From the NCBI GenBank assembly GCA_016700015.1, contig CP064995.1, positions 210,001-242,000 of the forward strand: DNA of 32,000 nucleotides, written 5' to 3'. Below are positions 7,996 through 10,752 of this stretch, piece after piece. The notes beneath the pieces were generated by a model. That model worked only from the letters and a program-made list of their open reading frames with translations. It was not told where the DNA came from and searched no databases. Position numbers and translations under genes: made by a program. The DNA is from Candidatus Saccharimonadota bacterium (lineage in GTDB: Bacteria; Patescibacteriota; Saccharimonadia; Saccharimonadales; Saccharimonadaceae). The first letter of the stretch is position 1, and every line of letters begins with the position of its first letter.

Positions 7996-10752
7996 ATGAA
8001 GCGCTACAATCCTACTGAAATTGAGCCGAAGTGGCAGCAGCGATGGGCCGACGACAATCGCTACGCTGCGAAAGACTTTGGTAGCCAGCCAAAATATTAT
8101 GTGACCGGTATGTTCCCGTACCCAAGCGGTGTGGGTATGCACACTGGGCATTTCATGGAGCATTCGATTGTCGACGCAGTGGCGCGGTTTCGCCGCAGCC
8201 TCGGCTACAATGTGCTCTACCCTATGGGTTGGGATAGTTTTGGGCTACCTGCCGAAAACTACGCCATAAAAACTGGCAAAAAGCCGCAGGTTACGACAGC
8301 CGAAAACATAGCCAACTTCAAGAACCAGCTTCGTCGTGTCGGTGCGAGTATCGACTGGAGCAGAGAGCTCAATACCGCCGACCCCGAGTATTATAGGTGG
8401 ACGCAGTGGGTGTTTACTCAGCTCTACCAGCGGGGGCTTGCCTATCAAAAAGAAGCCAATCAGTGGTGGTGCCCCAAAGACAAAACTGTGCTTGCCAATG
8501 AACAGGTGGTAAATGGTCGTTGCTGGCGCTGCGAAGAAATAGTAGTGAAAAAGCCCATGAAGCAGTGGTTTTTCAAAATTACGGACTATGCCGACGCGTT
8601 GCTCGAAGAAATCCCTGCGCTCAACTGGCCAGACAAAATCAAGCTTGCTCAGACAAACTGGATTGGTCGGAGCGAGGGCGCGGAGATTGAATTTACAGTC
8701 GATGATGAATCGGCAACCGCCGACTCACTGAAATTTACCCCAGAGTTGTCGCAAATGATTGTTGACCGTACAAAAACCTCTACAATTCGACTGGAGCCAA
8801 AAAACTTACGTGTTGGCGACAAAGCCGAGTTCTTAACACGCTACAATAGCGACCGGGTGAGTCATTTAGGTACAGCACTCATTACGCAGGTGCGTACTAT
8901 GAAGCTTGGTGCTATTCCCAATGACCTAGCGGGCCACGAACAGATGGATAGCGACGAACAAAAACTGGCTCGCTACCAAGGCTACTACGATGAAAGTGTG
9001 ACGCTCGACACTGCATTTACCATTTATGATTTTGAGTATATTCCCGATACAATTACTGTCTTTACCACTCGCCCCGACACCATTTTTGGTGCGACGTTTC
9101 TTGTACTTGCTCCCGAGCATCCGCTTGTGCCAGGTCTCGTAAACGACAATACGCGTGCTGCAGTCGAAAGCTACACCGCTGAAGCCATTAAGCGCAGCGA
9201 AATTGACCGAGCCGCCGAAGGCAAAGAAAAAACTGGCGTCTTTACCGGGAGTTATGCGGTCAACCCTGCCACGGGCGAAAAAATCCCCATATGGGTGGCC
9301 GACTATGTGCTGTGGGGCTATGGCACTGGCGCGATTATGGCAGTGCCGGCACACGATGAGCGCGACTTTGCATTCGCCGAGAAGTTTGATTTGTCAATTA
9401 TCGAAGTTGTCACAAAGCCTGAAGACGAGGCAGAGCAGTGTTATCACGGAGAGGGTGTACTGCTCAATTCGGGGCAATTCGACGGTATGTCGAGTAGTGA
9501 GGCTCGTGAGCAAATTGTGGCATGGCTTGAACAACAGGGAACGGGTAAAGCAAAAGTCACCTACAAAATGCGCGATTGGCTGATTAGTCGCCAGCGCTAC
9601 TGGGGAGCGCCGATCCCGATCATTCACTGTAAGCAGCATGGCGCAGTTGCCGTGCCCGAACACAATTTACCGGTACTGCTACCCGATATCGATGATTTTG
9701 CACCACGTGGTGATGGCAATACGGCGCTTGGTAGTGTGGAAGACTGGGTGAATACCACATGCCCCACATGCGGCAAACCTGCTAAGCGTGAAACTGATAC
9801 CATGGATGGCTATGCCTGTAGTAGCTGGTATTTGCTCCGCTACACCGACGCGCACAACACTGAGCAGGCATGGGATCCAGCCAAGGCTAATTACTGGGTG
9901 CCGCTCGACATGTATGTTGGTGGTGATCATGCGGTGGCGCACCTGCTGTATGTGCGCTTTTGGACGCACGTGTTCTACGATATGAAGCTACTGAATACCA
10001 AAGAACCTGTCAAGCAGCTGGTGTACCATGGGCTTATACAGGCCGAAGATGGCCGCAAAATGAGCAAAAGCCTGGGCAATGTGGTTGACCCACTCGATGT
10101 GATCGACCAGGGCTATGGTGCCGATGCACTGCGCACCTACGAGCTATTCCTGGGGCCAATCAACGAAAACAGCAACTGGAGCTCGCGCGGTATTACCGGT
10201 AGCTACCGGTTCTTAAACCGGGTATGGACACTGGTGCAAGAATACCAGGAGGCTGAAAAAGCCAGCAAGGGTGATTCCCGCCAGCTGACAGGCCTTACGC
10301 ACGCACTGATCAAAAAGGTCACTGACGATTATCATCGGCTCAGTTTCAATACTGCCATTGCTGCTATGATGGAATACGTCAATGAACTCTACAAGCTAAA
10401 AGTAGATGGCTTTAGTGGGCAGTGGCAGTTTGCACTGGAGTCGCTGATCATACTATTGCAGCCGCTTGCCCCCCATATGACTGCCGAGCTTTGGCAGCAG
10501 CTTGGTCGCGACGATGCGCTTGATTTTGCCAATTGGCCGGTGTGGGATGACAGCCAGATTGTGAGCGACACTATGACGATTATTGTGCAGGTAAATGGCA
10601 AGCTTCGTGCCAAGCTCGATGTGCCAGTAGGCGTGGCAGATGATGACATAAAAGCACTCGCCCTTGCGGACGAGAATGTGAAGCGGTTTGTGACAGACCA
10701 GCCGAAGAAGGTGATATATATCCCTGGCAGGCTTGTTAGTATCGTCGTCTAA
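7996..10752 (+). CDS. leuS: Leucyl-tRNA synthetase with an extra ~115-aa ASCH-like insertion before the CP1 editing domain
   Basis: [12 protein letters not shown] (HIGH-type), RKMSKSLGN (KMSKS), [20 protein letters not shown] and [15 protein letters not shown] (CP1 editing). The protein is 918 aa from ATG 7996; the ORF-track GTG 7990 is an alternative start. Confidence 0.95.
   Translation: [918 protein letters not shown]

Follow-up and report, generated by a model that had tools for sequence, protein, structure and literature searches.

A leucyl-tRNA synthetase (LeuRS) gene of a Candidatus Saccharimonadota bacterium carries, nested within the part that encodes the CP1 editing domain, a whole ASCH domain of the type represented by the Escherichia coli protein YqfB. 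The gene, leuS, lies on the plus strand at positions 7990-10752 of a 32,000-nucleotide stretch of assembly GCA_016700015.1 (contig CP064995.1, positions 210,001 to 242,000), which is called the window throughout, and the ASCH domain takes up 8722-9042. The best explanation of this arrangement is that the nested domain serves as an accessory N4-acylcytidine amidohydrolase tethered to LeuRS. Taken alone, what this explanation says about structure and evolution can be held with high confidence. The explanation as a whole, function included, may as easily turn out wrong as right, and the balance is just as level for the narrower proposal that the embedded domain has retained amidohydrolase chemistry.

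The synthetase is of the bacterial type. Its open reading frame is continuous, with 920 codons counted from GTG 7990, and the TIGR00396 equivalog model (leuS_bact) scores 1007.5 bits against a cut-off of 548.4 bits, in two stretches that are split by the insert. The true start is probably ATG 7996, which would give 918 residues, because the homologues all begin MKRYNP; residue numbers are counted here from GTG 7990 and are offset by +2 relative to ATG 7996. The signature motifs HTGH (8140-8151) and KMSKS (10057-10071) are present, as are the CP1 editing motifs TTRPDT (9064-9081) and [15 protein letters not shown] (9322-9366). Its nearest matches in the protein databases are LeuRS of Saccharibacteria (TM7), among them that of the cultured Ca. 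Southlakia epibionticum at 71% identity. One public NCBI protein, P0053, is 100% identical to the window protein and is annotated as a LeuRS of 665 residues that starts at M256 (window 8755), inside the ASCH insert. This start call looks truncated, since the window reading frame runs unbroken from 7990/7996; perhaps, and this is a guess, the insert upsets homology-guided start selection.

The insert (8701-9048) amounts to about 114 extra residues between a strand at residues 223-235 and a segment at residues 355-364, and its boundaries can be followed closely on the plus strand. The upstream flank, [13 protein letters not shown] (8656-8694), is the end of the catalytic-core linker together with the first strand of the first CP1 hairpin; it aligns to T. 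thermophilus LeuRS 199-239 and forms a strand at 225-236 in the full-length structure model. A variable linker, TVDDESATA (8695-8721), then leads into the ASCH domain; its length and sequence vary among homologues, and the first five residues of the model of the excised insert have a predicted local distance difference test (pLDDT) score below 50. The ASCH domain proper covers residues 245-351 (DSLKF...FEYI), as judged from PF04266, free-standing homologues, AlphaFold2 and Foldseek, and sits in the loop of the hairpin. The rest of the CP1 editing domain (9043-9531, positions 20-185 of the PF13603 profile, with both editing motifs inside it) begins four residues past the ASCH domain; the downstream flank [10 protein letters not shown] is at residues 355-364, and the insert ends four residues upstream of the strand that bears the Thr-rich editing motif. 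At the same site in solved LeuRS structures the gap is only 0-3 residues: segments 199-239 and 243-284 of the T. thermophilus enzyme flank three residues, and chain residues 218-260 and 261-297 of the E. coli enzyme flank none. The closest orthologue without the insert (P0003, locus L010) shows a clean in-frame gap of 113 codons and reads ...AEIEFT[SDDQ][11 protein letters not shown].

The original prediction had described an additional segment of about 115 residues, in frame within an otherwise intact LeuRS, and this description is borne out by the continuous reading frame, the full set of motifs and the comparison with solved structures. Its placement of the segment just before CP1 has to be revised: the insert splits the Pfam LeuRS editing-domain model PF13603 between profile positions 19 and 20, and it therefore lies inside the first CP1 beta-hairpin. 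The columns of the CP1 editing motifs are invariant in an alignment of 32 LeuRS sequences, with or without the ASCH insert. A chimeric misassembly, which the prediction had kept in view, is excluded in practice, as judged from sequence, because the same junctions recur in independent assemblies (loci L008 and L009, genomes of 11 GTDB species and about 48 database proteins). The alignment of LeuRS orthologues that it proposed as a check was informative, in that the insert occurs in many Saccharibacteria LeuRS and is absent from near-identical orthologues.

The identification of the insert as an ASCH domain comes from several kinds of comparison. When excised, it matches the Pfam ASCH family (PF04266) with 24.0 bits (E 6.6e-5), above the gathering threshold of 21.2 bits; in the context of the whole protein the score is 19.4 bits, just under that threshold. 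An exhaustive HMMER search with the insert recovered 96 relatives among 1.84 billion representatives, most of them free-standing proteins of 107-116 residues that align over query residues 9-113, and from this end-to-end match it follows that the insert is a complete domain whose homologues exist as proteins of their own. Each of the 45 aligned relatives matches ASCH (best E 8.8e-13), and the named ones are each called 'ASCH domain-containing protein' and belong to Paceibacterota or Patescibacteria. When the 45-sequence family profile was compared with the PDB, the best match was E. coli YqfB (1te7, E 4.9e-7; also 9kyf, deposited as 'N4-acetylcytidine amidohydrolase'), with the Lys, Thr, Arg and Glu of the catalytic set aligned.

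Structure prediction agrees with the profile searches. The AlphaFold2 model of the excised insert has a pLDDT of 87.5 and a predicted template modelling score of 0.75, and in a Foldseek search of the PDB its top 22 matches all have the ASCH fold, with E values down to 6e-6; the best TM-score belongs to the YqfB crystal structure 9kyf_A (0.72/0.81, root-mean-square deviation 3.0 A). The full-length LeuRS model has a pLDDT of 76.3, and few regions of it are predicted better than the ASCH part, at 84-92, which is predicted to form an independent beta-barrel between strands 225-236 and 352-357. Direct comparison is much less sensitive here: a word-indexed protein search with the insert alone returned nothing, pairwise BLASTP finds no significant similarity between the insert and YqfB (E 1.9), and hhalign with a thin profile of eight sequences gives YqfB a probability of 11.8% (E 0.0025). 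Because the pairwise and thin-profile comparisons are weak, the relationship to YqfB rests on the 45-sequence profile and the fold. The ASCH assignment of the original prediction is thus upheld by the Pfam match of the excised segment, the profile match to YqfB and the predicted PUA-like barrel, whereas the colinearity with YqfB that it read from the letters holds at the level of profile and fold and not as significant pairwise similarity. By sequence criteria the insert is a YqfB-type ASCH domain (the GxKxxTxR subgroup) and not an orthologue of YqfB.

The residues on which catalysis by YqfB depends are kept in the window protein. The octapeptide RTKTSTIR (residues 260-267; 8767-8790), located by alignments to YqfB and read from the DNA, contains the Lys, Thr and Arg of the ASCH signature GxKxx[E/T]xR, and a GHE motif lies at residues 315-317 (8932-8940), where E317 aligns with the catalytic acid E74 of YqfB. 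Residues K262, T265 and R267 likewise align with YqfB K21, T24 and R26, and the catalytic set and the oxyanion-hole Arg are thus all present. In YqfB these residues act as base (K21), nucleophile (T24), acid (E74) and oxyanion hole (R26); the K21A, T24A and R26A mutants are inactive, and the activity of E74A is down 100- to 1000-fold (PMC6972931). The motif GxKxxTxR occurs in 46 of the 49 LeuRS-embedded copies, and the 'HE' of GHE in 47. A comparison of the window insert with that of L008 gives a pN of 0.21 against a pS of 0.88, the latter saturated, and the insert is therefore under purifying selection; omega for the rest of leuS is about 0.07. The window ASCH domain is acidic (net charge -3, isoelectric point 5.3), as are the embedded domains in general (mean net charge -3.4, isoelectric point 5.3), the free-standing family and YqfB itself, and because of this acidity a generic RNA-binding role is unlikely for the embedded domains.

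The ASCH insertion is widespread in one branch of the Saccharibacteria without being fixed there. All four combinations of ASCH and a second nested domain, NUDIX, occur among the 121 closest LeuRS: proteins with no insert have about 805-811 residues, those with ASCH only about 913-931 and those with both about 1060-1096, while NUDIX alone is represented by P0048. ASCH-bearing LeuRS are common across a Saccharibacteria clade that includes Ca. Southlakia epibionticum. When one genome per GTDB species was scanned for the pattern, 11 loci came up, all within LeuRS reading frames, in records labelled Saccharibacteria, Saccharimonadia or Patescibacteria (10) and Peribacteria (1); the scan used a narrow alignment that reaches close relatives only, so the 11 species are a lower bound. 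A rough tree of the LeuRS core places ASCH-bearing proteins across the deep branches and insert-less ones in at least five separate groups. The insertion is ancient: a LeuRS of only 42% overall identity (P0337) has ASCH at exactly the same site, diverged about as much as the rest of the protein. This distribution fits an old insertion followed by repeated loss, with recombination blurring the tree. Five of the insert-less proteins (P0056, P0063, P0064, P0069 and P0098) have 20-55 residues of low-complexity sequence rich in S, A, P and D in the same hairpin loop. Either the hairpin tip tolerates insertions generally in these bacteria, or the low-complexity pieces are remnants of lost domains.

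The closest view of presence and absence comes from L008, which has the ASCH domain, and L010, which lacks it. Both loci share the gene order HD_4, Mur ligase, leuS, NusB, NUDIX, RNase III, S16, KH, TrmD, and outside the insert leuS of L008 and leuS of L010 share 97.4% identity at the protein level and 96.4% at the DNA level; at the insert they differ by the clean 113-codon gap already described. Because such a near-identical orthologous leuS exists without it, the ASCH domain is shown, as far as genomes can show it, to be dispensable for LeuRS function. Sliding-window identity across 6676-12492 of the window, L008 and L010 reveals mosaics of blocks at 100% and at 75-90%: for instance, the window matches L010 fully over the Mur ligase gene, and L008 does so over most of leuS, and divergence hot spots lie at about 8600-9300, around the insert, and at about 9300-9600. 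From these mosaic blocks it follows that the ASCH-bearing and ASCH-less segments are alleles swapped by homologous recombination. The proposal that LeuRS had made a functional acquisition therefore survives in part: the domain is in frame and its catalytic residues are kept, but it is absent from near-identical orthologues and so cannot be called a fixed component of the enzyme.

A NUDIX domain of about 150 residues is nested in CP1 of P0002, P0010, P0011, P0032, P0048, P0051, P0052 and P0059, and at loci L015 and L019-L021, at PF13603 profile positions of about 146/147; this is a different CP1 loop from the one that holds ASCH. The corresponding loop of the window protein, [20 protein letters not shown] (9397-9456, plus strand), has no such domain. 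By eye, P0010, P0011 and P0052 have a canonical Nudix box and P0002 a degenerate one, and the nested NUDIX domains are weakly nearest to the RppH and Ap4A-hydrolase types, always under the family cut-offs. The two families also meet outside LeuRS, in ASCH-NUDIX fusion proteins (P0227, P0230 and P0258) and at locus L005, where a NUDIX gene overlaps the start codon of an ASCH gene and a second NUDIX lies upstream. The NUDIX domains in these associations are not close relatives of one another. As judged by comparing them, the association is one of domain families that recurs in three ways: in fusions, in overlapping genes and in CP1, where NUDIX is the second domain to be nested. Neither the NUDIX of the ASCH-NUDIX fusions nor the free-standing NUDIX gene of the window (11980-12492) is closely related to the LeuRS-nested NUDIX, and both were rejected as its source or close relative. 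The latter gene lies 1.2 kb downstream of leuS, overlaps the end of nusB, and keeps its synteny in L008 and L010.

Free-standing copies of the embedded ASCH subtype also exist (P0121, P0123, P0124 and P0125). Downstream of the gene for P0125 (locus L013, 108-991) come a GNAT acetyltransferase gene that overlaps it, a histidine phosphatase gene and a gene of the inositol-phosphatase family, and P0123 (locus L012) lies among very small reading frames on a 2-kb contig. A search of viral contigs found no relatives of the embedded ASCH subtype. Derivation of the insert from a neighbouring gene was considered in view of a Mur-ligase-ASCH fusion (P0200), and was rejected: the fusion is only 19% identical to the Mur ligase upstream of leuS and is not its orthologue.

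In the preferred explanation, the embedded ASCH would be a small amidohydrolase that removes an N4-acyl group from cytidine, as its family membership suggests. Its attachment to a scaffold that binds tRNA, at a place beside the route taken by the CCA end, would direct or concentrate this chemistry on tRNA or on nearby cytidine nucleotides, and ASCH would then be an accessory 'eraser' or clean-up module, separate from aminoacylation and editing. The repeated pairing with NUDIX could mean that the two hydrolases serve a two-step pathway acting on modified nucleotides or RNA ends. Family precedent comes from a recent study that divided ASCH proteins into a Thr-type (GKTR, YqfB-like) and a Glu-type (GKER) according to their octapeptides, and found members of both types that lowered N4-acetylcytidine (ac4C) in tRNA (bioRxiv 10.64898/2026.02.27.708502). 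In the same study, stand-alone YqfB-type ASCH domains and YqfB gave no tRNA shift in electrophoretic mobility shift assays (EMSA), and the best substrate of YqfB is a free nucleoside (PMC6972931). The original prediction had offered an RNA-binding module or a modified-nucleoside activity; of these, RNA binding is the weaker option, given the acidic domain and the negative EMSA results of the family, while the retention of the YqfB catalytic residues speaks for the second.

Several observations weigh against an active, tRNA-directed amidohydrolase. The window allele has Arg260 (CGT, 8767-8769) at motif position 1, where Gly is found in 46 of the 49 embedded copies and in no less than 90% of the free-standing ASCH relatives, and it is the only RxK among the embedded copies examined; judging from this substitution, the window allele may be less active than the consensus. 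In the human TRIP4 ASCH domain a Gly16Trp change near the catalytic residues, which may or may not affect the motif Gly, abolishes activity, and deletion of E. coli yqfB leaves tRNA ac4C unchanged (bioRxiv 10.64898/2026.02.27.708502). The YqfB equivalog model of NCBIfam, NF003443, scores only 13.7 bits with the insert (E 0.059; cut-off 93). The gene neighbours of the free-standing relatives, which include NUDIX and AAA_18 kinase-like genes, suit a role in free-nucleotide metabolism at least as well as one on tRNA. Bacterial ac4C is known only from C34 of elongator tRNA-Met and not from tRNA-Leu. As to whether the substrate is borne on tRNA or is a free nucleoside or nucleotide, the evidence points both ways: a link to tRNA and LeuRS is favoured because the exact site has been kept across very divergent LeuRS and a second associated domain sits in the same CP1, and a free-nucleotide substrate is favoured because of the neighbours of the free-standing family and the kinetic preference of YqfB for the nucleoside. 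A more specific form of the tRNA-linked proposal, in which ASCH and, in some strains, NUDIX provide extra hydrolytic sites on CP1 that act on bound tRNA-Leu, its acceptor or its 5' end, is rather doubtful. If it were true, LeuRS in a deep branch of Patescibacteria would be a natural 'Rosetta-stone' fusion, in which an aminoacyl-tRNA synthetase itself carries out tRNA demodification or repair, and strains would exchange this activity as a recombining cassette.

The strongest competitor, unlikely but deserving real weight, is a salvage enzyme that merely hitch-hikes: an amidohydrolase for ac4C or other N4-acylcytidines that recycles host-scavenged cytidines and resides in LeuRS only because CP1 loops tolerate insertions, with no role in tRNA-Leu function. 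Saccharibacteria depend on scavenged nucleotides. The nucleoside preference of YqfB (PMC6972931) and the NUDIX and kinase-like neighbours of the free-standing relatives fit such an enzyme well, as do the low-complexity inserts in the same hairpin loop (P0056, P0064 and P0098) and the presence/absence polymorphism of ASCH. It accounts less readily for the nesting of two associated domains, ASCH and NUDIX, in different loops of one LeuRS domain, or for the maintenance of one precise site across LeuRS only 42% identical, both of which argue that the LeuRS context matters; and nested insertion is a costly route if the aim is merely to co-express an enzyme of 108 residues. The same conservation of site, together with the position of the insert four residues from the Thr-rich editing strand, could instead be taken to mean that the barrel is a non-catalytic appendage, one that contacts the acceptor/CCA end or the long variable arm of tRNA-Leu and tunes aminoacylation or editing, which was the leading idea of the original prediction. 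ASCH does have a PUA-like fold, and binding to nucleic acids is known for some ASCH proteins, as in the TRIP4-DNA complexes 9kyl and 8yfi that are among the Foldseek matches. Such an appendage is nevertheless quite unlikely, and pure RNA binding is the least supported functional option: the domain is acidic (isoelectric point 5.3), binding alone would not require that precisely the residues catalytic in YqfB be almost invariant, neither stand-alone catalytic ASCH domains nor YqfB shifted tRNA, and orthologues 96% identical in DNA work without ASCH and have the same editing motifs either way.

The patchy distribution on the LeuRS core tree, the presence and absence of ASCH among near-identical strains, and the recombination hot spot at the insert (~8600-9300) would also be expected of a strain-variable protective module, in which ASCH, with or without NUDIX, detoxifies something directed at LeuRS or tRNA-Leu, such as an acylated or nucleotide-type LeuRS inhibitor or a tRNA acetylated by a toxin. 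The weak resemblance of the nested NUDIX to RppH and Ap4A hydrolases, and the GNAT acetyltransferase gene that overlaps the free-standing embedded-type copy at L013, could be read in the same sense. However, PADLOC found no match to known defence-system models, the system has no known toxin or inhibitor, the recombination pattern extends throughout the locus rather than being confined to the insert, and YqfB-type pockets are specific for an N4-acyl cytosine ring and not for alpha-N-acetyl aminoacyl esters (PMC6972931); protection of this kind is very improbable. There is next to no chance that the insert is an assembly or annotation artefact, or a decaying remnant without function. The start of P0053 inside the insert, the lower guanine-plus-cytosine content of the insert (0.466 against 0.523 for the rest of leuS) and the deviant motif residue of the window allele are what such a view could call upon, and against them stand the unbroken reading frame, the same architecture in dozens of independent assemblies, the confident fold prediction and the purifying selection on the insert.

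Compared with E. coli YqfB (1te7, 9kyf-9kyh), the window ASCH domain is alike in fold, in the Thr-type KxxTxR motif, in the K/T/R/E set, in length (about 105 residues) and in acidic charge. The two differ in that identity is only about 20%, YqfB is a free monomer while the window ASCH is nested in a domain of another enzyme, Arg replaces the motif Gly, and the amidohydrolase activity of the window domain is a prediction. Closer relatives are found in a free-standing Patescibacteria ASCH family (about 107-112 residues; for example P0216, P0228 and P0301), whose members are 32-45% identical over the whole domain and share LKF, GxKTxTxR, GHE and YYG. The embedded copies nevertheless form a subtype of their own, with TIRLExK and IPNDLxGHE where the free Patescibacteria family has TWRLFDDK. 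The free proteins are uncharacterised, and their genes adjoin those for NUDIX, DUF1653, AAA_18 kinase-like or SpoU methyltransferase proteins.

The ASCH proteins reported as erasers of tRNA ac4C, archaeal ASCH-HTH fusions among them (bioRxiv 10.64898/2026.02.27.708502), offer a parallel, in that an ASCH catalytic domain is combined with a tRNA-binding module, which is a C-terminal helix-turn-helix (HTH) in the archaeal proteins and would be LeuRS here. The erasers of that preprint are terminal fusions to a small binding domain, whereas in the present case the ASCH domain is inserted within an essential enzyme. None of the 19 ASCH proteins tested in the preprint is from Patescibacteria or is a synthetase fusion, and it makes no mention of synthetases, Nudix or Patescibacteria. 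On the synthetase side, class Ia enzymes have other lineage-specific modules that leave the HIGH, KMSKS and editing motifs undisturbed, such as the leucine-specific domain and CP1 insertions of LeuRS and the IleRS-GNAT proteins (NCBIfam NF040702). The known LeuRS insertions, however, are not independent enzyme folds, while the ASCH module conserves its catalytic set and has homologues that are proteins in their own right.

The original prediction knew of no described LeuRS with such a module. A literature search turned up no account of an ASCH or NUDIX domain in LeuRS, which is in keeping with that view, but PF04266 is already marked on some of these LeuRS by Pfam hits that had been precomputed. 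The architecture is thus catalogued automatically and not described; its novelty lies in the nested setting of a known enzyme domain within a known synthetase. An ancient, selectively maintained YqfB-type ASCH in a tRNA-binding enzyme is independent genomic evidence that ties the ASCH family to tRNA. One or more independent enzyme folds within CP1 make an unusual synthetase architecture, and show that surface loops of CP1 can be landing pads for new activities. The cultured Ca. Southlakia epibionticum carries the insert, with the consensus Gly in its motif (P0018), and is a ready experimental system, and the presence or absence of ASCH between leuS alleles 96% identical in DNA supplies natural isogenic-like pairs for functional tests.

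A few further features of the window were recorded. Just downstream of leuS, 10876-11232 is the most divergent stretch of the locus, with 51-66% DNA identity to L008 and L010 between flanks at 85-95%; it contains a minus-strand reading frame (10892-11170) for a hydrophobic, membrane-like protein of 92 residues with no Pfam match, and the local guanine-plus-cytosine content is 0.61. A gene for an NYN-domain, RNase-like protein (27890-28468) lies between pheS (26527-27561) and pheT (28542-31022); an NYN-ASCH fusion protein, P0132, was examined as a possible relative of it, and the two NYN domains proved not to be closely related. Near the start of the window, at 19-3804, is the gene for a protein of 1261 residues with four DUF285 repeats and bacterial Ig-like domains, which is probably a surface protein.

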